The notes: generated from the letters alone by a model not told the origin. A stretch of 61,071 nt of DNA from a virus (IMGVR_UViG_3300005611_000024:1-61071), one strand, 5' to 3'; shown: positions 33,237 through 61,071, numbered from the stretch's first letter. Program-made: numbers and translations.

Positions 33237-33816
33237 ACTCCACGTCTTGTACTTCTACCACTTCTCTAGTATGTATAATCTTGCCTTTTAGTTCTTGTAT
33301 AGTCTTCATTAGTTCTTTTTCTAACTCTTCACCTGACTTATTGATGTGAGTTACCTCAGTTTTCTTCTTAAATGCGTCTACTCCGTCTATTTCACCCACA
33401 GCTTTGAATGCACTAATACGTTCTCTAGCATTTTTAGCTGAATAAGCCTCTTGTAACAGGCCATTGAGCACCGATAACTTAATATCTGCAAGGTCTTTTG
33501 CCACCATATGACTAGTCTGCGACACTAAACCTGCAAGATAAGCTATGGTTTCATTAGGATAAGTGCCAAAATCTGGTCTAAGCTCAGGATTTTTCATCAT
33601 TTCTTGAGCTAATTGTTCTGCTTGCTCCATATTCTCTTTAGATGGCTCTATGTTTTCCTCAGATATATCCGCCAAAAGCTTGATAGTATTGGTTCTAGCT
33701 TCTAATTCTTCTTGTGGAGATAAATCTGGTAATGCTTCACGAGCATTCTTTGGTAATGGAACGTTGTCCTCTATATGTGGAACTACTATTGTTTGGTTCT
33801 CAGAGTCTATTATCAT
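33223..33816 (-). CDS. Probable terminase small subunit
   Basis: Helical 197-aa protein directly upstream of and overlapping TerL. Confidence 0.55.
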   Translation of the reverse strand: MIIDSENQTIVVPHIEDNVPLPKNAREALPDLSPQEELEARTNTIKLLADISEENIEPSKENMEQAEQLAQEMMKNPELRPDFGTYPNETIAYLAGLVSQTSHMVAKDLADIKLSVLNGLLQEAYSAKNARERISAFKAVGEIDGVDAFKKKTEVTHINKSGEELEKELMKTIQELKGKIIHTREVVEVQDVEFEDD

Positions 33817-33915
33817 GTGTCGCTGTTTACACCTATATATTAATTGCAGCTTACTTTACAAACTCCTAGTATAATATATAATTATAAGTAATACAATGAA
33901 ACTTGAGAGGTTTCT

Positions 33916-34206
33916 ATGAAGATGGATTTAACGAGAGATGGAGTTTTGCATTTAGATATCTTTGATGTGGAGACTCAAGAAGAGAGAGACCAATTTATAT
34001 ATTACTATCTAGGGCTTTCCCGCAACGTCAAGAAAAAGTTTGAGAATGCTTATTACGCAGCCTATAATAAAAAATTATTAGGAGAACCTGAAGCAAATAT
34101 CATTCACACAGATGTACACGGAGTTACTCATATTGAAGTACATCCCCACGATATCGTAAATAATCTAAAGCTTATTAAGCAGATTATACTAAGTGAACAA
34201 CAATGA
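33916..34206 (+). CDS. Hypothetical protein
   Basis: GAGG SD. Confidence 0.6.
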   Translation: MKMDLTRDGVLHLDIFDVETQEERDQFIYYYLGLSRNVKKKFENAYYAAYNKKLLGEPEANIIHTDVHGVTHIEVHPHDIVNNLKLIKQIILSEQQ

Positions 34207-34463
34207 AAAAAAGAGAAAAAGTAAATAAACAACTAGACGAAATGTTTTTGGTCTGCTGGAAAGACCACACCGCTAATGCATCTTGGGTTGACGATATAGA
34301 GAAAGAAAAGTTTACGACTTGCTGGTCTGTGGGTTGGCTCAAAGGTGAAGATGATGATTGCATCAAACTCGTAGATACATACACTGATGACAACACAGTA
34401 GGTGGAGTTATGGTAATTTTAAAGTCTTGCATTGTTGAGATGTATATGATAGAAATGGAATAA
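34203..34463 (+). CDS. Hypothetical phage protein (VxWxD...W...SVGWL)
   Basis: ATGA coupling; recurrent phage motif. Confidence 0.7.
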   Translation: MKKREKVNKQLDEMFLVCWKDHTANASWVDDIEKEKFTTCWSVGWLKGEDDDCIKLVDTYTDDNTVGGVMVILKSCIVEMYMIEME

Positions 34464-34567
34464 GTAAAGTTTTAGGACAAATATAGTCCCCTACGTAACG
34501 ATGATTTTTGGGTTTTTAATATTTTCAGCCCAGCCTCGAGTTTAAGTTTATTGTCGTTACTTCTTTT

Positions 34568-34596
34568 CCCCCACGTTTAACGCTGGGGGTTTTTTT
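34568..34596 (+). terminator. Intrinsic terminator
   Basis: CCCCCACG..CGCTGGGGG stem followed by T7. Confidence 0.7.
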
Positions 34597-34598
34597 GT

Positions 34599-34700
34599 CT
34601 ACAGTTTATGAGGCATCAACCCACGATAGTATAACCTTCTATACTGTCCGTTAATCTTACGGTTTGGGTGTGCTGCCATTATCTTTGCGAGTATATACAT
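34599..34700 (-). CDS. Basic 33-aa peptide
   Basis: GGGAGG SD before MYILAKIM... Confidence 0.45.
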   Translation of the reverse strand: MYILAKIMAAHPNRKINGQYRRLYYRGLMPHKL

Positions 34701-35020
34701 ATCGCCTCCCTTGTTGAAACTTAGGTAAGCTTTTCTCCCATGCTTTATGGCTTCATTGAGTATACCTTGGTTTTTCAATTTTTTACATAAAATTTTTTTC
34801 AATGTGCCTTTTCGTTTACAAGGGGGCCACTTCCTGTATTAGTAAAGTTACGAGCTGGACTTTGAAAATGTTTTGATAATTTGTGTAGATTATTGTGTAT
34901 ACACCGATACATATATTACGCAGATATTTGGGGGGTTGGGGATAGGTGGGGTCAATAGTGGATTAATTAGTAAAGTTATGCTTTAATTATACTGTGATTA
35001 ACAAAAACTATGGAGGCTTT

Positions 35021-35188
35021 ATGAAGCAATTAGAACTAAATATATATCCTGCTTGTATTAGGATATTCACACCACTTGATAAATTAGCTAGGCATATGAG
35101 AATGTTTAGAGTTGATTTCACATATGATGAATTACTTGAGTGGCATAAAGAAGCTAACGCGTTAACACAGCAAGTTAGCAAAAGATAA
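35021..35188 (+). CDS. Early hypothetical protein
   Basis: GGAGG SD before MKQLEL. Confidence 0.65.
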   Translation: MKQLELNIYPACIRIFTPLDKLARHMRMFRVDFTYDELLEWHKEANALTQQVSKR

Positions 35189-35234
35189 TTAAGATTGGGC
35201 AAGGACGCTCAGAACTTTTACCTTGGAGGTAAAT

Positions 35235-35453
35235 ATGAAATTGTTTAATATACAATACAAATCCACAGAGCATAATAATCTTAATATTGAGGCTGAGACA
35301 GAAGAAGAGGCAATAAGAATCTTCAGAGCCCTTGTTGCAAGATACGGTGTTCTTAGTATACACGATGTAAAAGACCATGACCGTTTTAATGGTGATGTTT
35401 TTACAGATGCTGTTACAAGTCTCAGAATAAAAGGCGTCAAAGCTAGCAAATAG
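35235..35453 (+). CDS. Early hypothetical protein
   Basis: GGAGG SD before MKLFNI. Confidence 0.65.
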   Translation: MKLFNIQYKSTEHNNLNIEAETEEEAIRIFRALVARYGVLSIHDVKDHDRFNGDVFTDAVTSLRIKGVKASK

Positions 35454-35481
35454 TTAGGACAGAACAAGGAAGTTCACTTTG

Positions 35482-35516
35482 GCAGGGCTTAGAGAAATCT
35501 AGGTCCTGCTTTTTTT
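35482..35516 (+). terminator. Intrinsic terminator
   Basis: GCAGGGCTTAGA-GAAA-TCTAGGTCCTGC followed by a T run. Confidence 0.85.
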
Positions 35517-35710
35517 GTGCCTAATAAAATGATACCAGTTATCCGCCGCCGACCTCGTTGCGACGACGATATGAGTACTGAGATATCTCAGTGGTAATAG
35601 TAGAGAATATCTTAGATGATAGTATAATTATTTCAAGGTTGAGAGATTACCGCCTATTGGTATACCTTGTAAAAGCAATCAAGCTATCCTGTTTTAAAAG
35701 GTAAATTATT

Positions 35711-36361
35711 ATGAAAAAAGATAATTTAAAAAACTTAATGCGCTCTTTTGTGAACGCTAAAAAGAAAGTTAAGGATGTAGCATTAGACATCTTTAATGAG
35801 TTAGGACTAGATAACATTTCTAATCTTAAAACATTGGACGCTTGTAAGAATAAAGTTAAAAATGTTTTAAATGAAGTTAGAAGCGATTATATTCCAGAAA
35901 TTGCTGTACAGCATAGCGAGAATATATCTAGTGAATATAGTTTATTTCTAAATAGAGTAAAAGATGTATTTGTCGCGGATAAGAAAGGCTCTACTAAATT
36001 TACTCCTTATCAGTGTTATATGATGAGTAGAAATGATTATAGCAATCTTAGTAAAGAAAAGGCACCTACTAACAAATACAAGGAAGCTGGTGCTAGTCTT
36101 AAATCTCATATAAAACCTGTAAGGGATAAAATGAGAGAGCTAGTAGACAATACCAATAGAGAGTTAAAAGCGGAGTTAGTAGAATTGCTTAAAACTCAAA
36201 ATGGTATTGTTAGTAAGGAAAAACCTAAAACAAAAGCAGGGGAAATTAAAAAAGCGAAGGATGGACTAGATAATGCTAGAAAATCTTTTGAATATTTAGG
36301 AGACCTTGAAATGCTGGAGTGGTTAAACACTGCACCTAATAAGGATTATCGTCCTGTGTAA
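35711..36361 (+). CDS. Early hypothetical protein (basic, helical)
   Basis: 216-aa ORF flanked by TATAAT upstream and a terminator downstream. Confidence 0.75.
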   Translation: MKKDNLKNLMRSFVNAKKKVKDVALDIFNELGLDNISNLKTLDACKNKVKNVLNEVRSDYIPEIAVQHSENISSEYSLFLNRVKDVFVADKKGSTKFTPYQCYMMSRNDYSNLSKEKAPTNKYKEAGASLKSHIKPVRDKMRELVDNTNRELKAELVELLKTQNGIVSKEKPKTKAGEIKKAKDGLDNARKSFEYLGDLEMLEWLNTAPNKDYRPV

Positions 36362-36390
36362 TTTAGGATAGCATAAGGAAGTGCATTTTT

Positions 36391-36427
36391 AGCTGAGTTA
36401 GATTAATTTCTAGCTCAGCTTTTTTTT
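36391..36427 (+). terminator. Intrinsic terminator
   Basis: AGCTGAGTTAGA..TCTAGCTCAGCT followed by a T run. Confidence 0.85.
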
Positions 36428-36620
36428 GGCTCAAAATTTTTTGAAACCAGTTACCCACGACGACGACGATACGACACTGAGAAATCTCAGTACTTGTTTT
36501 AGTCTGCGTCAAAACTCTATCATTTAAGAAAATCAAATATGACACGAAACACATCACAAAGTGAAACCAGTTATTCGCCGACGACACTATTCACGAACGC
36601 TGAGAAATCTCAGTACTCAA

Positions 36621-37039
36621 TGTTCCACGCTGTGAACTTTGTTCCAAAATGCGTTTTTTGGTTGGAACGGATTTTCGTTGTATGGCTAGGATTGTGAGCG
36701 TTTGTTCCAATGTTCCAATGTTCCAACAGGGTATATGTCTGGTTTTTCAAAATTACGAGGTCAAGAGGTTATTTTTCGCAGTGCATTCAAGGCTCTCTAC
36801 ACAGACCGTCCTATTTTTCGCTTGGAACATTGGAACAAAACAACATAAACTATACTAACTAAAAAAATATTAATATATAAAACAATAACTTAGCTAACCC
36901 CGTTCTCTTTGTTCCGTTCCATTAGTAAAGTTAAAACGCCGTTTTTTTCTGGAACACTTGGAACAACCTTATATATCAATAACTTACACTTTGTTCCAAA
37001 TCGTGTTCCAACATAACTTTACAAATAGAACGGAACAAA
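36621..37039. other. Putative replication origin: TGTTCCA iterons, inverted repeats, IHF consensus site
   Basis: 11 exact TGTTCCA/TGGAACA in ~400 bp of non-coding DNA; TATCAATAACTTA at 36974. Confidence 0.65.
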
Positions 37040-37140
37040 ACTCAAAAAACCACGCCGAAAACAGACGCAAACTACAAAATCTGTCATCTAAGAAAACGAA
37101 ATATGACACAAAACACATCGCAAAAATAAAGTGAAATCGC

Positions 37141-37168
37141 TTGGGAATTAGTAAAGTTATGTTATAAT
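37141..37168 (+). promoter_or_regulatory. Early promoter (TTGGGA-16-TATAAT, extended -10)
   Basis: TGtTATAAT; same architecture as 38341. Confidence 0.7.
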
Positions 37169-37264
37169 GGTTGTATAGTGTGAGTAGAGATATTATTTTA
37201 TGACACTATATAAACTTAAACTTAACGCTGAGAAATCTCAGCACTTGAAAAGAGAGGTAACAAA

Positions 37265-37588
37265 ATGACAAACAAAATAGCAAACAAAGACGCAAGAGAA
37301 TATATAAATAGATGTGAGGACTTTACAGGTAACAATACTTTTGGGCAGAGAGAAGTAAACCAATATATCGTATATAGTTACAGCACACACTTTCCAATGT
37401 ATGTCTATGACTACACCACGCAAGAGTGGTACGCAAACAGCGACAAGTATTCACAGACTACATCAAAACACCAATCGCAATGCAGACCTAGTTTTGAGAT
37501 TGCGAGAGAGTTTAATACAGCAGACCTACAAAACCTTATTGACAGAGGTAGTCTTGCAGAGTGGGTAAAGTGGAAAGCAGTCGCTTAA
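37265..37588 (+). CDS. Early hypothetical protein (YxVYSYxxHxP...YSxTTSKHQ)
   Basis: GAGG SD; recurrent phage motif. Confidence 0.75.
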   Translation: MTNKIANKDAREYINRCEDFTGNNTFGQREVNQYIVYSYSTHFPMYVYDYTTQEWYANSDKYSQTTSKHQSQCRPSFEIAREFNTADLQNLIDRGSLAEWVKWKAVA

Positions 37589-37636
37589 TTATTTAATTGC
37601 TGAGAAATCTCAGCACATAACACAGAGAGGTGAAAG

Positions 37637-37807
37637 ATGAGTAAAATAAATAAATTACAAAAAGAAGTAGATGAGGCATTAAGCTTATGTACTACCAATT
37701 TTGAAAGAAGTATGTGTAGCCATTTCTTAAATAAAGACCTAGAAGAATATGGATATACCTTGAGTGTATACGATAAAGTAATACCATTGGAGAAAAACTA
37801 TGAGTAA
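37637..37807 (+). CDS. Hypothetical 56-aa protein
   Basis: Manually translated MSKINKLQ...; GAGG SD. Confidence 0.65.
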   Translation: MSKINKLQKEVDEALSLCTTNFERSMCSHFLNKDLEEYGYTLSVYDKVIPLEKNYE

Positions 37808-38006
37808 ATATTATTGTAGATGTTGCGAAACACATATCCCTGTAAAACGCGTACAGCTCGGCTATGATACTTGTATACAATGTGGCGAGGAAGAGGCTAG
37901 ACAAGTAAATCACACAATCGTACCAATGCACAAGTCCAACTATGTCGTAATCAGCGATAAGGCAGACTTGAAAGGTATCAATAACAAAGGGGGGTTATAC
38001 AGATGA
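37800..38006 (+). CDS. DksA/TraR-type C4 zinc-finger protein
   Basis: CRCC..HIPVKRVQLGYDTCIQC. Confidence 0.6.
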   Translation: MSKYYCRCCETHIPVKRVQLGYDTCIQCGEEEARQVNHTIVPMHKSNYVVISDKADLKGINNKGGLYR

Positions 38007-38161
38007 ACATATTAACTGATGACTTTGAGGTATCAATTAAGATAACTGTAATGGATACAGCAGGAAACTTTGAGGGTGAGTATCAATCAGAGATACTTGA
38101 TGACAAAACAGTACATGCAATTATGGAACAAGTAGCGAAAGCGAGAGGGGGTGTCAAATGA
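38003..38161 (+). CDS. Hypothetical 52-aa acidic protein
   Basis: ATGA coupling at both ends. Confidence 0.6.
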   Translation: MNILTDDFEVSIKITVMDTAGNFEGEYQSEILDDKTVHAIMEQVAKARGGVK

Positions 38162-38268
38162 ATGAATTTATATTGTATATAAAACTAACGATACTTGTAC
38201 TCATACCCTTATTGGTTATGGTGTCTTGTGGATTAGCTATCTTTATTCATAAGACAGGAGGATTGTAA
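38158..38268 (+). CDS. 36-aa membrane peptide
   Basis: Hydrophobic ORF, ATGA coupling. Confidence 0.45.
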   Translation: MNEFILYIKLTILVLIPLLVMVSCGLAIFIHKTGGL

Positions 38269-38340
38269 AGGTTTGGGGATAGTGAGTATCTTTTTTCTTT
38301 TTTCATTGCTCACTATCTCTCACTTGCGATATTATTTCGC

Positions 38341-38368
38341 TTGGTAATATGTAAAGTTGTGGTATACT
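38341..38368 (+). promoter_or_regulatory. Early promoter (TTGGTA-16-TATACT, extended -10)
   Basis: TGgTATACT; GTAAAGTT in spacer. Confidence 0.7.
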
Positions 38369-38447
38369 AATAGAATGAATAAAGAAATTATTAAATGATG
38401 TAAAACTAACTGCTGAGATTTCTCAGCACAACAAAACGGAGTAAACT

Positions 38448-39374
38448 ATGAGACTAAAACAAAGTGAGCTAGAGCTCAAAACACCAGAGCATATCATCTC
38501 ATTGGCAACATCAGGTATGTTAATCTCTTGTGATGTCAATGTTTGGAGTGCAACAAAACAAGACCGAACCATATCAGGCGAGGTTACATCAAGTAAGAAA
38601 GCCGACCCTAACGCGGGACGCTTTGTTAAAAACTTACTTGCAGGGGATAAACAACACAAAGACATAATCAACTACCGACAGGCAATATATAATTGGCAGA
38701 AACGCAGTACTTTTCGTTGGAACAATGCACAAGATTATCTGTTGTCAGTGGACTTGGAAAAGTTTATGGAAGAGTGGCATAAACACAAAGCAGAGTTTGA
38801 CAGATTGGTAGATAACTTTTGTATGAACTATGACACTATTAGAGGAAGTATGGCATTTGCTCAGGGTGATATGTACGACCAAGCAGATTATCCACCCGTA
38901 GAGGAAGTCAGGCGAAAGTTTGGTTGTGAACTGTATGTGTCAGAAGTGCCAGAGGGCGACCCTCGTTGTCAGATAAGCTACGACTTGGCGAATGACTTGA
39001 GAGATAATCTTAGCCGACAGCACAAAGAAAAAGTAAATTCTATTTTATCTCAACAGATAGGTAGATTGACCGAAGTTATGCAGAGTATCTCGCATTGCTG
39101 TACCTCGCACAAAGTCAAACTAAAAGATGGCACAGTGAAAGAAAAGAAACGCAAGATATACGATGAAACTTTACAAAAAGCGAAGGACTACTGCAAGTCT
39201 TACGCAAACTACGATTTAGCAGACAATGAGGATAATAAGAAACTCAAGTCAGCTATTAAACTCTTGGACGATACACTCAATGGAGTAGACAGTCATACAC
39301 TTCGTGAGAGTGATGTAGTACGAGAGCAAGTGAAATCAAATGTTGATGAAATACTTAGCAAGTTTGATTTCTAA
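38448..39374 (+). CDS. DUF3150-like helical protein
   Basis: WSATKQD...KNLL...DYPPVEEVRRKF; recalled as partner of AAA/vWA genes. Confidence 0.55.
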   Translation: MRLKQSELELKTPEHIISLATSGMLISCDVNVWSATKQDRTISGEVTSSKKADPNAGRFVKNLLAGDKQHKDIINYRQAIYNWQKRSTFRWNNAQDYLLSVDLEKFMEEWHKHKAEFDRLVDNFCMNYDTIRGSMAFAQGDMYDQADYPPVEEVRRKFGCELYVSEVPEGDPRCQISYDLANDLRDNLSRQHKEKVNSILSQQIGRLTEVMQSISHCCTSHKVKLKDGTVKEKKRKIYDETLQKAKDYCKSYANYDLADNEDNKKLKSAIKLLDDTLNGVDSHTLRESDVVREQVKSNVDEILSKFDF

Positions 39375-39422
39375 ACTAACTGCTGAGATTTCTCAGCACT
39401 TAAAAAACCTATGGAGGGTATT

Positions 39423-40502
39423 ATGTACCAAGTAACGATAGATGAGTTAAGAAAACTCATACCAACAATAAGCAAACAGGATAAGAACAATCCTAGAAAA
39501 CATATCACACCTATTGTTCAAAGCGAGGCAGGTTGTGGTAAAACAAGTTTACTCAAGATGATTGAGGAGGACTTGGGTGATGGATACGATTACATCTATG
39601 TTGATTGTCCAGTGAAAGACTACTCAGACATAGCTATGACTATTCCTAACCACGATACACAGAGTTTGAAACCATATGTAGGTAGTTTATTCAAACTTGA
39701 TAGTGATAAACCGAAAGTCATACTACTAGACGAGTTTATGAAGTCACCTAAGATGTTACAGGTAATCTTTACTAGACTTATGCTAGAGAGATACATAGGT
39801 GATACACCACTACCAGACGGCTCTATTGTGTTTGGTACTTCAAACAATCAGTCAGATGGATTGGGTGATAGTATGTTAGCTCACGCAGGTAACAGGGTGT
39901 GTATTTTACAGATGAAGAAACCAGACTCAGATGAATGGTTGCAATGGGCGAACAACAATGGAGTTAATTCATATGTGAAAGCTTTCGTCAGTATGTATCC
40001 AGACTGTTTGGCGAGTTACTTAGACGAGGGACAAAAAGAAAATCCTTATATCTTTAATCCTAAGAGAATGGAGTTATCCTTTGTTAGTCCTCGTTCGCTA
40101 GAGAAATCATCTATTATTGTAGATAACAGAGAGCTACTAGGTGAGAATGCAACTATGAGTGCATTGGCAGGTACGATTGGTAAAAGTGCGTCGGCTCAGT
40201 TCATGGCTATGCTACAACTAGGCGACAAGTTACCAAAGTTTGAAGATGTACTGAAAAAACCAGAGGAAGTACCTATTCCTGAAGAAGTATCAGCACAACT
40301 TATTCTAATGTTCCAAGCAACAGATAAGATAAAAACACAGGAAGACTGTACTAACTTTATGAAGTTTGTCCAACGAATACCACAACTAGAAACTCAAGCA
40401 GTATTCTTTTCAATGGTATTGAAGAATGACAAAACTAAAATGGTTGCATGTCGTAACAAAACAATCACAGATTGGGCGACTGCTAACCACTACTTATACT
40501 AG
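39423..40502 (+). CDS. MoxR-like AAA+ ATPase
   Basis: Walker A AGCGKT, Walker B ILLDE, sensor TSN, SPRS; start after GGAGG. Confidence 0.85.
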   Translation: MYQVTIDELRKLIPTISKQDKNNPRKHITPIVQSEAGCGKTSLLKMIEEDLGDGYDYIYVDCPVKDYSDIAMTIPNHDTQSLKPYVGSLFKLDSDKPKVILLDEFMKSPKMLQVIFTRLMLERYIGDTPLPDGSIVFGTSNNQSDGLGDSMLAHAGNRVCILQMKKPDSDEWLQWANNNGVNSYVKAFVSMYPDCLASYLDEGQKENPYIFNPKRMELSFVSPRSLEKSSIIVDNRELLGENATMSALAGTIGKSASAQFMAMLQLGDKLPKFEDVLKKPEEVPIPEEVSAQLILMFQATDKIKTQEDCTNFMKFVQRIPQLETQAVFFSMVLKNDKTKMVACRNKTITDWATANHYLY

Positions 40503-40511
40503 GAGGAAACT

Positions 40512-40685
40512 ATGAATGAAAATACTAGATGTTTGATTACAGACTTGAAAGAGGGTGAGGACTTTTCTGTACCTGTGTCGCATATACAGCAATGGATAAT
40601 GGATAACATTGAAGATGTGATAAATGGTCAGTATAGGTTTGATGGAACTTACGAAATAAATAAACAACAGGAGTTAAAACTATGA
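40512..40685 (+). CDS. Hypothetical 57-aa protein
   Basis: AGGAGG SD; ATGA overlap with next gene. Confidence 0.65.
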   Translation: MNENTRCLITDLKEGEDFSVPVSHIQQWIMDNIEDVINGQYRFDGTYEINKQQELKL

Positions 40686-41848
40686 AACACACAGCAGAAC
40701 AAAGACTCAAGAGGTCGCATGTTGCGTTGATGAAACACCCTGAAACTGCATTGTACTCAGGTATTATTCTAATGGGTAAGAGTACCATAGATGACAATGT
40801 TCCAACTGCATACACAGATGGAGTAAACAAAGTTTATGGTAGGGAGTTTGTTGACAAACTAAATGATGAAGAGTTACGAGCATTGATACTACATGAGAAC
40901 TTGCATGTTGCATTGAAACATATGAACAGGTTTATGAAAGAGTTTAAAGCAGAACCTCAACTCATTAATGCGTCAGCAGATTATGTTGTAAATGATATAA
41001 TTGTAAACTTACAAGACAGGGACTTTTGTAAACTTCCAGATGGAGGGTTGGTTGACAGTAAATATCATAATTGGTCAGTGCGACAGGTTTACAATGACTT
41101 GAAACAAAAGCAAGACAATGACCCTGATTTTCAACCACAAGACTCACTAGATGAACATGGGTTTGGTGAGGGCGAGGGTAGAAATATGACACCACAAGAG
41201 CAGAAAAAACTTAGTGAGGAAATTGACAAAGCATTGCGACAGGGTTCACTACTCGCAGGTAAGCTAGGTGGTAAGACACCACAAGCGATTGAAGATTTAC
41301 TTACAGGTAAGGTAGATTGGCGAGCCATCCTTAGAGAGTTTATTACCTCAAACACAAGAGGTATGGAAGAACTTTCTTGGCGAAATTACAGTAAGAAACA
41401 TATCCCTAACGATATTTACTTACCAAGTGCAATCAGTGAAAAAATGGAAGAACTTGTTATTGCGTGGGATACAAGTGGGTCTATCAGTAGTCAGGCAAAC
41501 GCAGAGTTTGCAGGTGAACTACAACTTATTTGTGAGAATGTAAATCCAACTAAGGTTCGTATCTTATGGTGGGATACAGAGGTCGCAGGTGAGCAAGTGT
41601 TCACAGAGGGTAACTATGAGGGTATGGATAAAGTACTAAAGCCGAGAGGTGGAGGTGGTACAGACCCTAACTGTATTCCTAAGTATATCAAAGATAAAAA
41701 TATCAATGCGTCAGCTATGGTTGTATTTACTGACGGGTATTTCTATGGTGATGTAGATTGGAGTACAGACATATCTACATTATGGTTGGTTACTGAAAAT
41801 GATAGGTTAGAAGTACCAAAAGGAAAGATTGTTAAACAATATTTATAA
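40682..41848 (+). CDS. Metallopeptidase plus vWA domain protein (DUF2201-like)
   Basis: TAYTDG, HENLH (HExxH), MIDAS DTSGS, GGGGTD, FTDG. Confidence 0.88.
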   Translation: MKHTAEQRLKRSHVALMKHPETALYSGIILMGKSTIDDNVPTAYTDGVNKVYGREFVDKLNDEELRALILHENLHVALKHMNRFMKEFKAEPQLINASADYVVNDIIVNLQDRDFCKLPDGGLVDSKYHNWSVRQVYNDLKQKQDNDPDFQPQDSLDEHGFGEGEGRNMTPQEQKKLSEEIDKALRQGSLLAGKLGGKTPQAIEDLLTGKVDWRAILREFITSNTRGMEELSWRNYSKKHIPNDIYLPSAISEKMEELVIAWDTSGSISSQANAEFAGELQLICENVNPTKVRILWWDTEVAGEQVFTEGNYEGMDKVLKPRGGGGTDPNCIPKYIKDKNINASAMVVFTDGYFYGDVDWSTDISTLWLVTENDRLEVPKGKIVKQYL

Positions 41849-41893
41849 ACACTGAGATTTCTCAGTAATTAAAAACACTATGGAGGTTTTATT

Positions 41894-42760
41894 ATGTTTG
41901 AGAGAGTAAGATTTGAAAGATTAGAAAATGTTCGTAATAACTTTAAACAGATAAGAGGTAGAAAAGCTGAAGAGTATTATTTCTCATTATATAATACTTA
42001 CGAACGAGGTGGTAATCACGAGATTAGACCTGAGTATAATGAACTTGGTGTGTGTGATAGCTATGTATATAACTATCAAAAGAATGACATACTTCGTATC
42101 TATCATAACGATATAGTGCAAATATTAAATGTGGAATATGGTAAGCATATAATGAACGATATGCATGAGTCTTGGGATTATCGCATTAGCCATGAAAAAG
42201 CAAGAAATGGTTATGTATTACATCACTTCAATAAAACAGTTGGAAAAAATTATATATATCCTGTTGTAAATGGTATGGCATTTCACATACACACTAATGA
42301 AGTCATTACTAAGTATGATGTACATTGTCGTATTGTTAATCGCAAAAAAGCTGAGAAGTCTTGGACTGAAAACGAGCCGAAGTGGTTAGCAGTGCAATCT
42401 ATGTTTAATACAGTGAATGGTCAGGCGAGACAAGAAATGGTTCGTAATATTCACAAAGAGTATGGATTTGTATTTGGTAAGTGGGATTGGCTAGAGTCTA
42501 GACCTTATATACCTTATACACCAGAACACATAGAGGCAGTGAAAAAAGCAAGTGAGATAAGTGCGTTTGATGAAGTGGTTATTGCTATGGGTATGAATGG
42601 TTCAAGACTAGATAAAATGAAACAGTCATATAAGCATTACTTAAACGAAGTAAATGATAACTTCAAGATAAAAGTACACCCTTGTGAGAACAAGTATTTT
42701 CCGACAAACAAACACATTAAAATAGTAATGAGAGAGGTGAATGATGAAAACGATAAATAA
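41894..42760 (+). CDS. Hypothetical protein
   Basis: 288 aa, GGAGG SD. Confidence 0.75.
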   Translation: MFERVRFERLENVRNNFKQIRGRKAEEYYFSLYNTYERGGNHEIRPEYNELGVCDSYVYNYQKNDILRIYHNDIVQILNVEYGKHIMNDMHESWDYRISHEKARNGYVLHHFNKTVGKNYIYPVVNGMAFHIHTNEVITKYDVHCRIVNRKKAEKSWTENEPKWLAVQSMFNTVNGQARQEMVRNIHKEYGFVFGKWDWLESRPYIPYTPEHIEAVKKASEISAFDEVVIAMGMNGSRLDKMKQSYKHYLNEVNDNFKIKVHPCENKYFPTNKHIKIVMREVNDENDK

Positions 42761-43829
42761 TAAAGATATATTACAAGGTACGCACTACAAAGAACTAGAA
42801 GTCTTTGTGAATGAGATGTGTGGTAAGTTTGATTTAAAAGTATTAGACGAATGCAGAGTAAAACCGAGTCATTGGTATAATGTTGAATTTCTTCCAATGA
42901 ACTATGATAGATTTGGTAGTAGATTTGATAAAGATGAATTAGAAAATCTTAAAAATAGAAATTTACCGTCAGGTGTTATTCTAACTCGCAATGGTTTACC
43001 TAACTGTATTGTTTGGTTACAAGAAGATGATGATAATGTATTAAGATATTATTACCACACAGCTATACCTATGAGAGAGAAAGATAATAAAGGTTTTATT
43101 TTCTCAAAGAGATTGAGTCAACTGATAAAGAAGATACAAACTCATGTAGTGCGTGGACGAAGTATTGAACCTATGTCAGATAATAATCTCATAGCTCGTC
43201 TTACAATAGGTGGCTATGGTTCATATAGTTTTTATGATACCTTTGAAAAATTAATCAGTGGTAATGTAAAAAGTATGAAAGCTGAATACAACTCAAAAAA
43301 TATGGTTGGTGAAACACTTCACTCATTAATGAAAGTCTTAGATGATGACAAAGTCTTTTCTTCAACAGATGAATATTCAAAATACAAAACTAAAGTACAA
43401 GAAATAGTAGAGTATTTTGATGAACAAACTGAAAAGATAAAAGAGTCAGAGGGTATAATACAAGCAAAACTTTTTAAACCTTTTCATCTATTTATACAAT
43501 CACCAGACTATAACTCAAAAAATAATTGTTATGCTTTGCGTGGTAACTTTTATGTGGGAGGTGATACAAAAGAACCACAACTTTATATTTTTAAAGACAG
43601 TGTGCAATATTGTGATAGTATAGAAGACTACAAAGATTATGATAGTATATGTGGTAGACTTACTATGTTTAAAAATGTGTACCCTGTTGATGAAACAAAA
43701 GGTGAACTATCAAACTTGATAGAACGAGACCAATACAATTATAAAGGAAATAAATTTGATGACGCATTAGACATGGGTTACATGTATTTTGGTAACGCAT
43801 CAACTAATATATTCTTTGTTTTTGAGTAG
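42741..43829 (+). CDS. Hypothetical protein
   Basis: 362 aa, GAGG SD. Confidence 0.75.
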   Translation: MMKTINNKDILQGTHYKELEVFVNEMCGKFDLKVLDECRVKPSHWYNVEFLPMNYDRFGSRFDKDELENLKNRNLPSGVILTRNGLPNCIVWLQEDDDNVLRYYYHTAIPMREKDNKGFIFSKRLSQLIKKIQTHVVRGRSIEPMSDNNLIARLTIGGYGSYSFYDTFEKLISGNVKSMKAEYNSKNMVGETLHSLMKVLDDDKVFSSTDEYSKYKTKVQEIVEYFDEQTEKIKESEGIIQAKLFKPFHLFIQSPDYNSKNNCYALRGNFYVGGDTKEPQLYIFKDSVQYCDSIEDYKDYDSICGRLTMFKNVYPVDETKGELSNLIERDQYNYKGNKFDDALDMGYMYFGNASTNIFFVFE

Positions 43830-43836
43830 GAGTTAA

Positions 43837-44238
43837 ATGGGATTAGTTTTACCAGAATTTGAATTTGAACCAATAACCTCCAAGGTTGAGGGAAGTATGT
43901 GTGTGCCAATAGTGTTAGACATGAAAGGCATCTACAATGTTTATGTGGGTAAAGATACAACTAGACGATACAAACAAGAACAACTTCCCTCTTTTATCCT
44001 ATCTAAAATTATCATAGCTAAAGAACTTAGCACCAATCCTAAACTTAAATCTGTTTATTCAATCCCTTCTAAATATCAACTCTTTACTTGTCCAGAAGAT
44101 GGTATAGAGAGCATTTCTTGGAAGATTTCTGATAGCATATATGTTATAGTCTTGACCAAACAAGAACTATCCGAACTCAAAGGTACAAGGATTGACACCA
44201 GAAAAGAAAGTCAAAGAGAAAGTCAAAAAAATTCTTAA
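43837..44238 (+). CDS. Hypothetical protein
   Basis: AGGAG SD. Confidence 0.7.
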   Translation: MGLVLPEFEFEPITSKVEGSMCVPIVLDMKGIYNVYVGKDTTRRYKQEQLPSFILSKIIIAKELSTNPKLKSVYSIPSKYQLFTCPEDGIESISWKISDSIYVIVLTKQELSELKGTRIDTRKESQRESQKNS

Positions 44239-44488
44239 AAACTTGAGCTGTTATTATTGCATGCCTGCAACAGGTGGCTATGGCTCTAGTGGTGTGCCAG
44301 ACTTCATCATATCTTATCGTGGTAAATTTATTGGTATTGAATGCAAAGCCAATGGAGGTAAACCAACTGCATTACAAAATAAACACTTAGCTGATATAAA
44401 AAATTCATTAGGTCAGAGTTTACTTATTGACGAAACAAATGTTGATATGCTAGACTGTTTGATACTTTCAGGTGAAAGCAACATCTGA
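44192..44488 (+). CDS. VRR-NUC / Holliday-resolvase-like nuclease
   Basis: TPEKKVK...GVPDFI...FIGIECKA...PTALQ. Confidence 0.85.
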   Translation: MTPEKKVKEKVKKILKNLSCYYCMPATGGYGSSGVPDFIISYRGKFIGIECKANGGKPTALQNKHLADIKNSLGQSLLIDETNVDMLDCLILSGESNI

Positions 44489-44541
44489 TAATTAAAATAA
44501 AAAGCTGAGAAATCTCAGCACTTAAACTATGAGGAAAGGAA

Positions 44542-45045
44542 ATGAATATATTTGTATTAGACGAAGAGCCACGTACTTGTGCTGAGTATCATTGTGATAA
44601 ACATGTGGTAAAGATGATACTAGAAACTGCTCAAATGATGTGTACTGTACTTAACGAACTGGGACACAACACACCTTATAAATCAACTCACAGTAAGCAC
44701 CCTTGCACTTTGTGGCTAAAACAATCACTAGCTAACTACAACTGGACATTGCGTTTAGTGAAGTATTTAAATCGTGAATATCAAGAAAGATATAATAAAA
44801 CGATAGAACACAAGTCGTGGGGCGTGGTGCGTTCTCTACCAACAAAGATATTATTACCTGATACAGAACTCACACCGTTTGCTCAAGCTATGCCAGATGA
44901 ATACAAAAATGTTGACCCTGTGATAGCATATCGTACATACTACATCAACGACAAAAAAGGTTTCGCCACTTGGAAAAACAAAGTACCTGCGTGGTGGACA
45001 AACACTGAGAACTGGTATCGTACCGAAGGAGTCGTTTCAAAATGA
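44542..45045 (+). CDS. Pyrimidine-dimer DNA glycosylase (DenV-like)
   Basis: MNIFVLD...HCDKHVVKMILETAQM...HPCTLW...EYQERY...AYRTYY. Confidence 0.8.
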   Translation: MNIFVLDEEPRTCAEYHCDKHVVKMILETAQMMCTVLNELGHNTPYKSTHSKHPCTLWLKQSLANYNWTLRLVKYLNREYQERYNKTIEHKSWGVVRSLPTKILLPDTELTPFAQAMPDEYKNVDPVIAYRTYYINDKKGFATWKNKVPAWWTNTENWYRTEGVVSK

Positions 45046-45233
45046 AAAAACCTAAAACAATAAGTGATATTATAAAACCAGACTTATATAGCTCTTTAAA
45101 TCCACAAGATAAATTTAGATTTCTTATGCTATATGTACAACAAAATAAAAACTTAAATGACAATCAACACGAGGCGGTGTTGAAAATGACCGAAGAAGAA
45201 TTTAAAAAACTAGAGAGAGGTGAAAATGCCTAG
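45042..45233 (+). CDS. Hypothetical protein
   Basis: ATGA coupling. Confidence 0.6.
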   Translation: MKKPKTISDIIKPDLYSSLNPQDKFRFLMLYVQQNKNLNDNQHEAVLKMTEEEFKKLERGENA

Positions 45234-45471
45234 AGGGTCAATATACACATCAGAACAAATAGATAATATTATAAAAAGAGTTGAACAATTTAAAGAAGAA
45301 AACTCAGACGCAACACGAGCTAGTCTTGCAAGGTACGCAGGTTGTGATATTTCGGTGTTGAAAAGATTAGAAAAACAAGGCAAACTAGAACTTCCAAAGC
45401 CTTTGACTAGACAACAAGCAAGAAAAAGAAGAACAATAGATTGGGCAAAAACATTAGGAAAATTAAGATAA
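45220..45471 (+). CDS. Small HTH-like protein
   Basis: TRASLARYAGCDISVLKRL. Confidence 0.5.
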   Translation: MKMPRGSIYTSEQIDNIIKRVEQFKEENSDATRASLARYAGCDISVLKRLEKQGKLELPKPLTRQQARKRRTIDWAKTLGKLR

Positions 45472-45665
45472 TGGTTGATGAAGTAGATATAGCAAATAAA
45501 AATGTAGAGAGAGAAATAGAAACTGCATTAAAAAATATTAATATCACAATACCAAAAAATGAAACAGGAAAGTGTTTTTATTGTAAAGAAGATATAACAG
45601 ACGAGAGAAGATGGTGTAACGCAGACTGTAGGGATAACTATGAAAAAACAAACAGAAACGCATAA
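45471..45665 (+). CDS. TraR/DksA-like RNA polymerase modulator
   Basis: MVDEVDIA (DxxDxA) plus CFYC...CNADC; TAATG coupling. Confidence 0.65.
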   Translation: MVDEVDIANKNVEREIETALKNINITIPKNETGKCFYCKEDITDERRWCNADCRDNYEKTNRNA

Positions 45666-45837
45666 TTATAGTTTAAGAAAACATTATGACGAGCAAGTGT
45701 GTCATAAGTGTGGGGCAAAGGCTAGATTTAAACACAAAGGTATTTGGTGGTGCTCTTGGGAAAATTTATTAGGGGAGTACAATCTAGTTGGTAAATGCAA
45801 AAAAGAAAAACAGGAGAGAAATTATGCGGAAAGATAA
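45640..45837 (+). CDS. Small Cys-rich protein
   Basis: CHKC...WWC. Confidence 0.55.
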   Translation: MKKQTETHNYSLRKHYDEQVCHKCGAKARFKHKGIWWCSWENLLGEYNLVGKCKKEKQERNYAER

Positions 45838-46042
45838 AATATATATTAAAACTGTTGAGTTAGACGATTATGAGTTTATTAAAAGACTTAACGAAATAAT
45901 AAAAAAATTAAATTTAGAAGAAAAAATGAAAGTAGATGAAAACGGAGTTGAAATTATTTTAGGAGACTGGAATCCAGAGGAAACAGAGGAAATATTTGCA
46001 ACCTTAAGTGACTATGTAAAACATGGAAAAAGTAACCACTGA
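45824..46042 (+). CDS. Hypothetical protein
   Basis: AGGAG SD before MRKDKI. Confidence 0.55.
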   Translation: MRKDKIYIKTVELDDYEFIKRLNEIIKKLNLEEKMKVDENGVEIILGDWNPEETEEIFATLSDYVKHGKSNH

Positions 46043-47928
46043 TGAAAATCATAACCATTGATTTTGAAACATATTATGATAGTGATTTTAGTCTATCTAA
46101 ACTAACTACTGAGGCATACATAAAAGACCCACGATTTCAAGTTATTGGATTTGGTGTTAAAGTAAATGGTGGTCCTACTAAATGGTATACAGGCACACAC
46201 GAAGAACTAAAAGAAAAATTAGACTATTATAAATTACAAGATAATGCAGTATTATGTCACAACACTATTTTTGATGGTGCAATATTATCTTTTATTTTTG
46301 ATATAACTCCTAAACTTTATCTTGATACTTTATCAATGGCTCGTTCATTACATGGTATCAATGTAGGGGGTTCACTTAAATACCTCGCTGAAAAATATAA
46401 CATAGGACAGAAAGGTACAGAAGTCTTAGACGCAAAGGGTAAAAAATTAGAGGACTTTGAACAAGATGAACTAGACCGATATGGTCAATATTGTATTAAT
46501 GATGTGGAACTAACCTATGAGTTATTTAATAAATTAGCTTATCCTGATGGAGAATATGGACTAAAAGAGTTTCCAAGAACAGAGATACAATTAATTGACA
46601 TAACTATAAGAATGTTTACTCAACCTCGTTTACAAATCAACGACGCAGTCTTGATAGACAGACTAGAAGAAGTAACCACAGAAAAACAAAAACTTTTAGA
46701 TGGTTTGAAAGCAAAACTAAACTGCGAAACAGCAGAAGAAGTGAGAAAGAAACTTGCTAGTAATAAACAGTTTGCAGAACTGTTAGAAGATTTAGATGTT
46801 GTCATTCCTTTAAAAGTATCACCAGCGACAGGCAAAGACACATTTGCTTTTGCAAAAACCGATAGAGGGTTTATTGAACTACAAGAACACGAAGACCCAT
46901 TAGTACAAGAACTTTGTGCAGTTAGATTAGGTACAAAGTCAACGATAGAAGAAACAAGAATAGAGAGATTCTTAGACATTGGGTGTCGTAACAACGGTAA
47001 GTTACCTATACCGTTAAAGTATTATGGTGCTCACACAGGTAGATGGTCAGGTTCAGACAAAGTGAACTTCCAAAACTTACCGAGTCGTGACGCAAAAAAG
47101 AAAGCTTTGAAGAATGCTATTATACCGCCGAAAGGTAATGTTATATTAAATGTTGACTCTTCACAGATTGAAGCTCGTATACTTGTTTGGTTAGCAGGGC
47201 AAGAAGATGTTACACAAGAATTTAGAAATGGTGAGGATGTGTATGCAAACTTCTCTAGCAAAGTGTATGGCAGAAAGATTACAAAGAAAAATAAAGAAGA
47301 AAGATTTGTAGGAAAGACCTGCACACTTGGTTTGGGATATGGCACAGGTTGGAAGAAACTACAACACACATTAGAAACATCTGGTCAAGTTGCGAAGCTA
47401 TCTGAGGATGAATGTAGAAACTTAGTAAAAATATATCGTGAAGTAAACTACAAAGTTATAGATTTATGGAAAGAGTGTGACCGAGCATTAGAGTTTATTT
47501 CAAACAGTACCGACGAAGGCTACTACTTAGATAAACATAAATGTCTTCATATAGAAAAAGGTCGTATCAGATTACCTAATGGTATGTGTATATACTACCC
47601 TAATTTAAGATGGGACGCTTCTCAACCTCAAGGGGAGTTTGTTTATGACTCTCGTAGAGGAACAGTTGGTATATGGGGTGGGTCAGTTGTGGAGAATGTG
47701 GTGCAAGCGTTAGCTAGAATAGTCATAGGTGAACAAATGATAAAGGTCTCCAGAGAGTACCCTGTTGTGTTGACTGTACATGACGCAATCGTTTGTGTTG
47801 CACCAGAAGAAGAAAAAGATATAGCACTAAAAAGAATTATGGAGATAATGTCTGAGCCTCCTGAGTGGGGTAAAGATTTACCTATCGCCTGTGAGGGTGG
47901 CTATGCAGATAATTATGGGGATTGTTAA
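46042..47928 (+). CDS. polA: Family A DNA polymerase with 3'-5' exonuclease
   Basis: IDFET, HN..FD, YCINDV; TGRWS, QNLP, DSSQIEAR, KTCTLGLGYG, TVHDAI. Confidence 0.95.
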   Translation: MKIITIDFETYYDSDFSLSKLTTEAYIKDPRFQVIGFGVKVNGGPTKWYTGTHEELKEKLDYYKLQDNAVLCHNTIFDGAILSFIFDITPKLYLDTLSMARSLHGINVGGSLKYLAEKYNIGQKGTEVLDAKGKKLEDFEQDELDRYGQYCINDVELTYELFNKLAYPDGEYGLKEFPRTEIQLIDITIRMFTQPRLQINDAVLIDRLEEVTTEKQKLLDGLKAKLNCETAEEVRKKLASNKQFAELLEDLDVVIPLKVSPATGKDTFAFAKTDRGFIELQEHEDPLVQELCAVRLGTKSTIEETRIERFLDIGCRNNGKLPIPLKYYGAHTGRWSGSDKVNFQNLPSRDAKKKALKNAIIPPKGNVILNVDSSQIEARILVWLAGQEDVTQEFRNGEDVYANFSSKVYGRKITKKNKEERFVGKTCTLGLGYGTGWKKLQHTLETSGQVAKLSEDECRNLVKIYREVNYKVIDLWKECDRALEFISNSTDEGYYLDKHKCLHIEKGRIRLPNGMCIYYPNLRWDASQPQGEFVYDSRRGTVGIWGGSVVENVVQALARIVIGEQMIKVSREYPVVLTVHDAIVCVAPEEEKDIALKRIMEIMSEPPEWGKDLPIACEGGYADNYGDC

Positions 47929-59100: not shown

Positions 59101-61053
59101 GCTTGGTCTGGAGTTGCTTTAGGATTCTGCTCCATATAAAGTTCTGTATATTTTTTAAGTGCTTTTTCATAATTTCTCATAATAGGTAACAAAGCTTTTA
59201 AGTAATTATCTGATACACCATTCATTAAAGTAATTTGTTCATAAAAATTATTAAAACCTTCCTCACCTATTATTAACATACCATTTTTTCTCATTTCCTC
59301 TTCTTTAATTTTAAGAGGGTAAGAAATATCAACAAATTTTTGTTGTACTTTAGTCACACTGTCTTGGAAATTTGTAAAGAATTTTTTAATTGATGCACCA
59401 AGTCTAGCAGGTTTTCCTTTAGATTCTTGATATGTATCTATAAATAAAGCTTCATGCTCAGCGGGATTTAATTTTTCAGCTGGGATAGCTACGTCAGTAT
59501 CTTCTTTTAATGCTAATCTCTCACTAGGATTTATAAGCTCGTCAATTATCTGTTTACTTTTACCTTCTTTTAATAAATTATTTGCTCTTATTGTTGCTAT
59601 TTTCCTACTTATTTTTATTCTTTGTTTCGGACTTAATCTTGTAGGTGTCACTCCATAAGTAACTAATCTATCACTTGTTTTTAATAAGTCATCTAATAAT
59701 GAATCTTGAGATGATGGTACAGTTATTCTTGTTCCTATTAATGATTTAAATAAATTTATAATATCACTTAGTAAAGACATAAATCTATTTCTTGGTTGTG
59801 TAACGCTAGGTATACTTTGTAAAAAATCTTTGAAGTCATTATTAGAATATGCCTCTGCAATAAATTCTTGCACATTAGTAAGTCCGTAATATTTTTCACC
59901 TCTTTGCCTAGCCACTTGTCTAGCTCTGTCAATTATACTTGTAATTTGTTGAGCTTGTTCTATAGTAATAAATTTAAAACCATATACTGTAGCTGCATGG
60001 GAAAGTTCGTGTAATAATGTCTTAATTGATTCTTCAGAGTCTAGTTTACCTAATATAAATACATTGTTACCTTTTAAATTTATTCTCCCGCTTTGTGCTG
60101 GACTTAAATACCTACCGAGAGCAACACCTTCTAAAACTATTCCTGGCTCTCCTCTTGCTTTTAATTCTTTACGCTCCATAGCTAACATTTCTTTTTCTGA
60201 TACTACTTTGACATTAACATCACCCATGTTAGGTACAGTTGCTAATCTAGCTGTTAAATTTTTAAATAACTCTAGTTGCTGAATATACTGATTTCTTTGG
60301 TTTGTAGTAAGAGGTTTGTTAGTATCATTATGTAGTATAGGCTTGGTAGTATCTCTAGCCACTCTTAACATTTTATCAATTAAGGGGCTAATATTTCTTA
60401 AAGCATCAGATGCATTTGAAGACTTTTGTAATATACGTTTAGCTTCAGAGTTAGTTACTGGGTTATATCCTTTAGTTGTAAGTTTAAAATCTGGCCCCAA
60501 TATATCGTTATCATAGTTAACATATTCTTCTAAAATATCATCTATTGTATCATCACTTAAACCTTGTCCAGTTAAGTCACTTTTTATATTATCAAGTGTT
60601 TTTTCAACTTGTTTTTCTACTTTATTATTTTCTTTCTTTGTTTCTTCATCTGATTGTATTCCTGATTCCATAACGTTTACTTCTTCTGAATCATAATTAT
60701 CATCTACTCTTTGTGCTTGTCTTTGCAGATTTGAAGTTACTTTTGCTCCAACTGTAGGTGGTTTAAAAGTTTTTACTTCACTGTCTATATAAGACTTATC
60801 ACTATTTGTTCTTTTTAAATAATCATCAAGTATTGGAGAATCGTAAAACTCTTTTCTAATTTTTCCACGGTCTTCCGCTTCCTTTTTAAGTTTTTTAGCA
60901 TCTGCTAATCTTGTTTTTTCAGATTCTGATAATTCTTTTTGTTTTTCAAGCTCCCCTATGGTTTTGTTATAATTTTTAATATCTGCTGTATCCATACCCT
61001 CTTCAAAAATATATTCATTAATATTATTTTCTATAAGCTCGTTAGCAGAATTA
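56136..61053 (-). CDS. C-terminal part of giant polyvalent protein (zincin HExxH domain; LPD38-like C-terminus)
   Basis: LLHELSHAAT...EFIAE; FASMxGAAR / LPxG..PWGFG / PIFEYxxNxNxFG patterns; continuous with 2000-1. Confidence 0.75.
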
Positions 61054-61071
61054 GAACTAGAAAAAGGGTTA
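61054..61071. repeat. Terminal overlap with 1-18
   Basis: Exact match. Confidence 0.95.

Follow-up and report, generated by a model that had tools for sequence, protein, structure and literature searches.

Lineage-specific palindromes in the early region of a podophage family, and a co-varying orphan protein as their candidate reader

The virus record IMGVR_UViG_3300005611_000024, from an uncultured marine podophage (61,071 nucleotides; the window, i.e. the whole stretch of DNA that was analysed), carries in its early region nine copies of a 16-bp palindrome. We propose that these palindromes probably constitute, on balance, a distributed operator array on duplex DNA, read by the product of a 216-aa open reading frame (ORF) placed next to the first copy and here named gene X. 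Related phages carry different palindromes in the same positions, and, among the genes compared, gene X is the one whose sequence changes with them.

The array is real and highly non-random. An exact scan of the window with the motif RCTGAGAWWTCTCAGY gave nine matches (copies 1-9, Table 1), and no match appeared in any of 100 dinucleotide-preserving shuffles (chance expectation 0). A search of the whole record found no tenth copy, all nine lying within 35577-44519; a search with the 14-bp core, allowing up to two mismatches, added one match only (42351, two mismatches), which is within chance. The claim made in the initial annotation, of nine copies and none elsewhere, was thereby borne out, and so was its account of the variable positions. 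Each copy consists of two 7-bp half-sites flanking a 2-bp A/T centre. The arms are identical in all nine copies, while the centre is AA (five copies), TT (three) or TA (one) irrespective of gene direction, and the outer pair is G..C in five copies, A..T in three and G..T in one. The sites of the window are perfect palindromes, neither asymmetric nor oriented. The half-site CTGAGA occurs 32 times in the window (31.3 +/- 5.2 expected), 18 of these occurrences being the arms of the nine copies; lone half-sites thus number just 14, compared with approximately 31 half-sites expected in total. No copy is followed by a T run on the plus strand, which agrees with the earlier statement that the palindromes are not terminators; terminator-like scores were obtained on the opposite strand only, for copies 6, 7 and 9. 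A search of positions 33800-46100 with the Rfam 15 covariance models placed no family at the palindromes, its sole match being a sub-threshold snoRNA elsewhere in the region.

The palindromes are a family-wide system whose sequence is lineage-specific. Among 36 related viral loci, fetched with the ATPase of the early region as a handle, 34 have their own recurrent palindrome in the same region (31 with 6-bp arms recurring at least three times, and three more with 5-bp arms). No recurrent palindrome with 6- or 5-bp arms was found in the loci L032 and L033 or in Pseudomonas phage KPP25. The palindromes of the family include ATTAACA-NN-TGTTAAT, ATCGACA-N3-TGTCGAT, ATCGAA-N5-TTCGAT and ACCCTT-N5-AAGGGT, as well as CCTAACA-N-TGTTAGG (17 copies), CCCGTA-N-TACGGG and TCTGACA-N3-TGTCAGA; the wider family has at least nine further types, of 13-18 bp overall. 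Three relatives are 100% complete, and in each of them all copies are confined to a single stretch of 8-10 kb; in the one of these that has direct terminal repeats, they are found 4.7-12.6 kb from the left end. In the cultured Rhizobium phage RHph_TM3_14A there are 25 copies of TTACC-N5/6-GGTAA, which span 8.5-34 kb of the locus, many of them within annotated genes and several with the right arm over a ribosome-binding site. In relatives, copies may overlap a ribosome-binding site, contain a start codon or sit within ORFs. The description of all copies as intergenic therefore holds for the window, where 9/9 lie outside plausible genes (some mechanical ORFs of 37-82 aa overlap copies), and fails for the family.

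Type also switches between phages that are otherwise nearly identical. The ATPase of the locus L005 is 97% identical to that of the window and the DNA of the two is collinear at 75-93% identity; nevertheless, all nine slots of L005 hold CGTGACA-NN-TGTCACG rather than GCTGAGA-WW-TCTCAGC, the form in the window. Around copies 4-9 the 30-nt flanks keep 15-28 of 30 bases, whereas the 16-bp cores share 9 of 16, and the changed core positions are the same at every site. More generally, close relatives with ATPases 97-99% and a 308-aa protein 95-96% identical may have window-type or CGTGACA-type cores, which share only 9-11 of 16 bases. Thirteen metagenome loci of the window's clade were examined for their type: three (L043, L044 and L047) have that of the window, while L045, L046, L048 and all seven loci of an 82%-identical group have the CGTGACA type. 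Two more types were found through relatives of gene X, namely CGTTACA-WW-TGTAACG (L056 and L058) and CGTCACA-NN-TGTGACG (L059); P0008 and P0011 had no match in viral contigs and hence fall outside the palindrome typing. Four types thus occupy the same slots in the closest relatives of the window, and three of them (CGTGACA, CGTTACA and CGTCACA) differ only at the fourth base pair of the half-site. Since these three types are one base pair per half-site apart, the reader must recognise the base identity of the stem or duplex and not the fold alone.

The initial annotation had recommended checking whether relatives carry different palindromes co-varying with one gene, and this proved to be the case for gene X. 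When 18 ORFs of the window were compared with up to 11 relatives, and then with three more types, the core genes were found to be 75-100% identical regardless of palindrome type. Gene X was the sole compared ORF that is both present in the same slot everywhere and sharply divergent between types: the six copies from CGTGACA-type loci are 57-100% identical to each other over 236 aa, while the 216-aa protein of the window shares 30-36% identity with them, in the C-terminal half only. These comparisons make gene X the best-supported candidate reader of the palindromes. Other ORFs considered for this role were rejected. Those of 362 and 288 aa (66% and 79% identical, respectively, to their L005 counterparts) are 89% identical in L046, which is of the other type; the 76-aa ORF before copy 1 is 81% identical in L056, of a third type; the slot after copy 5, which holds the 56-aa ORF, contains unrelated small genes within one type; and the 64-aa ORF shows no partition by type. 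The adjacent 288- and 362-aa ORFs (41894-43829) belong to no family and gave no tblastn match in cultured phages; their identity ranges from 58% to 99% among phages whose neighbouring genes are 80-99% identical, i.e. they evolve fast and are not tied to palindrome type.

A second, independent co-variation was observed in clade C (20 loci, four palindrome types), where the gene following the first palindrome, C1, is the positional analogue of gene X. Only pairs with less than 90% ATPase identity were counted, and pairs lacking C1 (two loci) or the 308-aa protein (three loci), whose contigs end early, were left out. C1 proteins from phages of the same type are 42-74% identical (n=56, median 51), those from phages of different types 30-45% (n=83, median 38). 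The interleaved genes are not separated by type, the medians for same- and different-type pairs being 80 and 77 for the ATPase, 76 and 73 for the 308-aa protein, and 35 and 37 for C2. Because the sites are interleaved with these three genes, the association of C1 with type is not simply the shared ancestry of one block.

Gene X belongs to a small orphan, all-helical family and is itself predicted to form a symmetric homodimer. A full HMMER search of 1.84 billion representatives assigned to this family 13 clusters only; their alignment extends from end to end and centres on a single conserved basic core. The homodimer prediction is symmetric, with a score of 0.73 (best control 0.00). Of proteins with solved structures, 20 of 30 pairs attain this mark, as does 1 of 23 single chains; the alignment used for gene X was made for this analysis, so that these counts hold only roughly. 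Three runs agreed in 100% of contacts, with partner pLDDT of at least 79. The predicted interface comprises residues 2-31, 56-71 and 148-213 and leaves the conserved basic core (approximately 105-140) free. The initial suggestion of a control system read by a dimeric phage protein, with this ORF as the candidate, is in this way strengthened as regards the co-varying gene and the predicted homodimer, while DNA binding by gene X is, as before, something that we infer, together with the direction of its effect and the lack of a reader outside the compared region.

The placement of the sites (Table 1) agrees with what had been claimed for start codons, stop codons and promoters. Copies 4-9 end 20-27 nt ahead of start codons (37265, 37637, 38448, 39423, 41894 and 44542), four copies follow the preceding stop codon by 2-15 nt, and two, copies 4 and 6, lie downstream of sigma-70-like promoters. 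For copy 7, the listed ORF start (39411) is 13 nt past the palindrome, and the second ATG (39423), preceded by a ribosome-binding site, was taken as the start. Six of the nine copies are thus in leaders or between cistrons, and copy 1 alone abuts a promoter, so that there are many sites, mostly outside promoters. Gene X forms a transcription unit of its own: a terminator is followed by copy 1, by the conserved sigma-70-like promoter and by gene X, after which come the second terminator and copy 2. The -10 hexamer is 38, 50 or 60 bp from the centre of copy 1 in the loci measured by script, and 39, 47 and 48 bp in three further loci measured by eye; all six distances fall within a 3-bp span modulo 10.5, which is weak evidence for duplex DNA.

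Table 1. Palindromes and associated features in the early region of the window
Feature	Position	Strand	Remarks
Intrinsic terminator	35481..35517	+	13-pair stem and T run; precedes copy 1
Type-independent left flank of copy 1	35534..35576	+	ACCAGTTA box, then CGACGA-rich stretch
Palindrome copy 1	35577..35592		ACTGAGA-TA-TCTCAGT; followed by the gene X promoter, with 8 bp before its -35 hexamer
Sigma-70-like gene X promoter	35601..35628	+	TAGAGA-16-TATAAT; kept in relatives whatever their palindrome type
Gene X (216 aa), candidate cognate factor	35711..36361	+	Orphan, all-helical, predicted symmetric homodimer; own transcription unit between two terminators
Intrinsic terminator	36391..36428	+	12-pair stem and T run; ends gene X unit, upstream of copy 2
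Palindrome copy 2	36476..36491		55 nt past the terminator closing the gene X unit
Palindrome copy 3	36599..36614		Outer pair G..T; edge of GTTCC/GGAAC iteron region
Non-coding region, origin-like	36600..37060		15 GTTCC/GGAAC iterons; bounded by copies 3 and 4
Palindrome copy 4	37227..37242		59 nt downstream of promoter 37141-37168; 22 nt before ATG 37265
Palindrome copy 5	37599..37614		10 nt past stop 37588; 22 nt before ATG 37637
Palindrome copy 6	38412..38427		44 nt downstream of promoter 38341-38368; 20 nt before ATG 38448
Palindrome copy 7	39382..39397		7 nt past stop 39374; upstream of ATPase gene
Palindrome copy 8	41851..41866		2 nt past stop 41848; 27 nt before ATG 41894
Palindrome copy 9	44504..44519		15 nt past stop 44488; 22 nt before ATG 44542

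In the mechanism that we consider most plausible, host RNA polymerase would start at the sigma-70-like early promoters, and gene X would be expressed early from its own host-type promoter beside copy 1. Its product would accumulate and fill the sites, each palindrome serving as an operator whose two 7-bp half-sites are bound by one symmetric homodimer. Sites in the 5' leaders of, or between, the cistrons of early and replication-preparing genes, and beside the gene X promoter, would then allow occupancy to set the level or the timing of early gene expression, a roadblock or a repressor with autoregulation being the likeliest form. Since each lineage would possess its own matched site and protein, such control would be restricted to its own DNA.

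The main alternative, which we regard as unlikely, is that the palindromes act in transcripts, as RNA hairpins bound by a type-specific phage factor (gene X or another) and engaged in processing, end stabilisation, anti-termination or translation control. The position of six copies in leaders or between cistrons, shortly before start codons and in two cases downstream of promoters, is what such elements would show, as is the overlap of the right arm with the ribosome-binding site or start codon in relatives; in clade C the sites extend to hairpins of 27-29 nt (about -14 kcal/mol). However, the arms are invariant while the centre varies in sequence, its length being fixed for each type, and invariant stems with variable loops are contrary to most protein-RNA hairpin recognition. 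The predicted hairpin energy ranges from -3 to -17 kcal/mol across types (about -4 to -14 when averaged), so stability is not conserved; the TTAACA type is marginal (about -4 kcal/mol), and for one of its copies the best RNA fold is not the palindrome hairpin. Copies 1 and 2 are each located behind a strong intrinsic terminator, and copy 1 is upstream of a promoter. In the long palindromes of clade C the inner and outer arms are conserved, and the bases between them, inspected by eye, have lost complementarity. The absence of an Rfam match and the occurrence of AA and TT centres irrespective of gene direction likewise count against RNA. The invariant arms, the variable hairpin energy, the placement of terminators and the small number of lone half-sites were all counted in favour of duplex DNA, and the mRNA-hairpin option of the initial annotation is in our opinion the weaker one.

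Several observations weigh against an operator array read by gene X. Three of them would suit hairpins better. The outer pair of the window palindrome co-varies between A-T and G-C with one G-T, a sign of strand-specific constraint. Among the non-Watson-Crick pairs of the family, G-T (51) is more frequent than A-C (33), in a set that allows two mismatches and may include chance matches; the other 81 of these 165 pairs, which cannot pair at all, count against hairpins. The centres of some types are biased between strands, those of the ATCGAA type being C-rich on the sense strand. Other points concern the protein. No DNA-binding fold or family was recognised in gene X, the best Pfam match being the ParB-family entry PF08775 below threshold (E 0.004, 17.9 bits, cut-off 25). 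PHROGs, a PDB sequence search and a protein atlas gave nothing for it (in the atlas, unnamed viral clusters at 0.86-0.88), and its AlphaFold monomer, all-helical, is too poor (pLDDT 58.8) for a fold search. C1 gives a good model (pLDDT 84.5), made of long helices, for which no fold comparison was significant: Foldseek returned nothing at E <= 0.001, and the best VIA-align Z score, 6.6, came from single long helices and does not exceed what common helical arrangements give. Neither C1 nor gene X yielded anything meaningful in profile searches of Pfam and PDB, and hhalign gave probabilities of at most 0.5% between gene X and the analogues of other clades, i.e. no detectable homology. The co-variation is also not one-to-one, since L056 and L058 have one type and gene X proteins from different 50%-identity clusters; the type switch within the window's clade represents few events, and nearly all relatives are contig fragments. 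Finally, it is conceivable that the reader is encoded elsewhere, e.g. by the 2,311-aa virion protein.

The same comparisons bear on the possibility that the sites belong to a regulator of the host, in which case no phage factor would be needed and switches of type would follow switches of host. If the palindromes are taken as two half-sites of 4-5 bp around 6 bp, their spacing resembles that of CRP/FNR-family dimers, and the half-site spacing in the window's clade would fit such an architecture; perfect consensus sites could, moreover, capture an abundant host protein. We nevertheless consider this explanation quite improbable, given that close relatives from similar waters have four types, of which three are a single base pair apart, that the wider family adds at least nine more types of 13-18 bp, that type is tracked by a phage gene, and that most sites lie away from activator or repressor positions relative to promoters.

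Two further explanations would replace the operators by sites of an enzyme. According to one of them, the palindromes are promoters of the N4 hairpin kind, or another palindromic promoter class, at which a phage-borne or injected RNA polymerase starts transcription in or just after the palindrome. The promoters of the N4 virion RNA polymerase are, in the part of the published description used here, phage-specific short inverted repeats upstream of early genes at the genome end that enters first, with a stem of 5-7 bp and a conserved 3-nt loop centred at -11, recognised by a giant virion polymerase (PMC4496689). With this geometry, a start approximately 11 nt from the centre would leave leaders of about 17-24 nt containing a ribosome-binding site, such promoters would be lineage-specific, as for phage polymerases, and a giant virion protein of 2,311 aa is indeed encoded. 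The window shares with N4, as far as that description goes, short phage-specific inverted repeats upstream of early genes; it differs in its 2-bp centre (a 4-nt loop if folded), in loops that vary within the genomes of relatives, and in that no polymerase was found. A total of 53 ORFs scanned with Pfam and PHROGs revealed no phage RNA polymerase, and the D-x-D-G-D motif is absent from every window frame of at least 150 aa, though a very divergent enzyme is conceivable; in the giant protein only an LPD38 domain was recognised, and a PDB sequence search gave no match to the N4 virion RNA polymerase or another notable relative. Taking into account also the host-type promoters of the early region, the unconserved loops, the hairpins too weak to extrude and the overlap of palindromes with ribosome-binding sites or start codons in relatives, we consider this explanation extremely improbable.

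In the other explanation the main role of the palindromes is in recombination or mobility, and gene X is the enzyme that acts on them, as cassette boundaries or as repeats of the REP/RAYT kind. Gene X is flanked by copies, and gene content varies after copy 5. In addition, L046 (2780-2900) lacks the 107/115-aa gene that lies between copies 4 and 5 in L005 (7540-8040), and the one palindrome left there has the left-hand flank of copy 4 on one side and the right-hand flank of copy 5 on the other, which is what a deletion by recombination between two identical palindromes would produce. Yet identical 16-bp repeats can delete without a dedicated enzyme, most copies border on conserved core genes, and do so at orthologous positions in every relative, and PHROGs and Pfam scans detected no nuclease or transposase signature in gene X, which makes this explanation very improbable. 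The cassette-recombination option of the initial annotation can thus be kept for one relative, which lost a gene exactly at the palindrome, and then as a by-product only.

Distributed operators read by a single protein have precedents. In the IncP plasmid RK2, the dimeric proteins KorB and KorA read identical short palindromes placed before many operons, some of them far from promoters, KorB being a member of the ParB family. Gene X differs from KorB in that its ParB-family score stays below threshold, i.e. no ParB domain was recognised, and in its setting, an apparently lytic phage rather than a plasmid. The closest described systems appear, by analogy, to be the stoperator networks of Cluster A mycobacteriophages and the dyad repeats of Cluster O. 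In the former (L5 gp71 and relatives), according to the portion of the source consulted, one protein reads 20-30 dispersed short sites, mostly non-promoter, and acts on elongating polymerase; both the motif and the protein differ between related, heteroimmune phages, with cognate binding preference, and the sites are 13 bp long, asymmetric, oriented with transcription and involved in the prophage immunity of temperate phages (PMC6550527). To the extent of that account, the window resembles this system in having many copies of one short site, mostly outside promoters; its motif varies between relatives together with a protein that would be the DNA-binding reader. It differs in that its sites are perfect palindromes within an early region of approximately 9 kb and in that the candidate has no recognisable repressor fold. 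The Cluster O phage Corndog carries a 17-bp dyad repeat with invariant 7-bp arms and a variable 3-bp centre, in 34 copies distributed genome-wide over both transcription arms; the repeats are intergenic or close to gene starts, their centres are oriented independently of transcription, and no cognate protein is named in the sections drawn on here (PMC4351075). Judged from these sections, the likeness to the window is one of form only and not of shared descent (invariant inverted 7-bp arms, a short variable centre, location at gene junctions), and the window differs in having nine copies confined to the early region, a 2-bp centre, a candidate protein and observed switching of type.

The window is a whole IMG/VR virus record with an estimated completeness of 98%. 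A minus-strand ORF runs off both of its ends in the same frame (3-2000 and 56136-61070), forming one gene of approximately 2,311 aa, which suggests that the record is a complete genome in circularly permuted form. The protein encoded by this gene has an LPD38 'polyvalent protein' domain, and the annotation of its KPP25 counterpart is virion structural protein. A podovirus late module occupies the minus strand from 1 to approximately 33.8 kb (terminase, portal, head, tail fibres and ejection protein), while the plus strand from approximately 33.9 to 56 kb contains early and replication genes (ATPase, metallopeptidase/VWA protein, family A DNA polymerase, exonuclease, helicase and primase-like protein), with host-type (sigma-70-like) promoters and two strong intrinsic terminators in the early region. 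Among cultured phages, those closest in DNA polymerase sequence are the Rhizobium phages of the RHph_TM3_14A group (36% identity), followed by Pseudomonas phage KPP25 (33%); gene order in RHph_TM3_14A is the same as in the window. A blastn search of the early region against cultured phages gave no match. General Pfam and PHROGs scans detected no integrase, apart from a sub-threshold Arm-DNA-binding match in the primase-like protein.

Other sequence features accompany the array. Copies 2 and 3 are preceded by the same composite flank as copy 1 (boxes at 36446 and 36566). This flank (35534-35576, 36446-36475 and 36566-36598) consists of TGA(A/T)ACCAGTT, 5-6 nt and a CGACGA-rich stretch, and is kept in relatives of all four types; an ECF-sigma-like reading of ACCAGTT...CGACGA, made by eye, was dropped, the spacing being inconsistent. 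Between gene X and the next gene there are approximately 900 bp of non-coding DNA of origin-like appearance, with 15 of the 69 GTTCC/GGAAC iterons of the genome, and this pentamer is also what the outer arms of the long palindromes consist of in clade C and in L006. Directly before copy 4, in the leader (37175-37226) that follows promoter 37141-37168, there is an inverted repeat of 8 bp, TATAGTGT...ACACTATA, which is kept in L005 and L046. The 11-mer TTAGTAAAGTT occurs six times, always on the plus strand (34839, 34967, 36922, 37148, 8063 and 55385); at 34967 and 37148 it occupies the spacer of promoter-like sites with an extended -10, and it may mark a distinct promoter class.

If gene X reads the sites, it would represent a new family of DNA-binding proteins with a simple, naturally evolving recognition code, whose rules of specificity are directly testable, since three types lie one base pair apart; RHph_TM3_14A, being cultured, is a relative in which the system could be examined. 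It is also possible, if doubtful, that the palindromes and their readers form a private code that runs the early programme, the lytic-phage counterpart of heteroimmunity, in an abundant, apparently lytic podophage family of sea and soil. A new family of helical homodimers would then read a palindrome that can be switched by exchanging a single base pair, at position 4 of each half-site (G, T or C), phages 95-99% identical would be split into types without cross-control in co-infection, and approximately nine dispersed sites would be kept while the genes between them recombine freely. Sharply diverged sites in near-identical genomes provide a clean natural case of a regulator and its many targets changing together. 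Should the operator interpretation be true, dispersed operator networks would not be confined to temperate actinophages, but would also govern how early genes are organised in a widespread group of uncultured podophages from the sea and in Rhizobium phages that are in culture.

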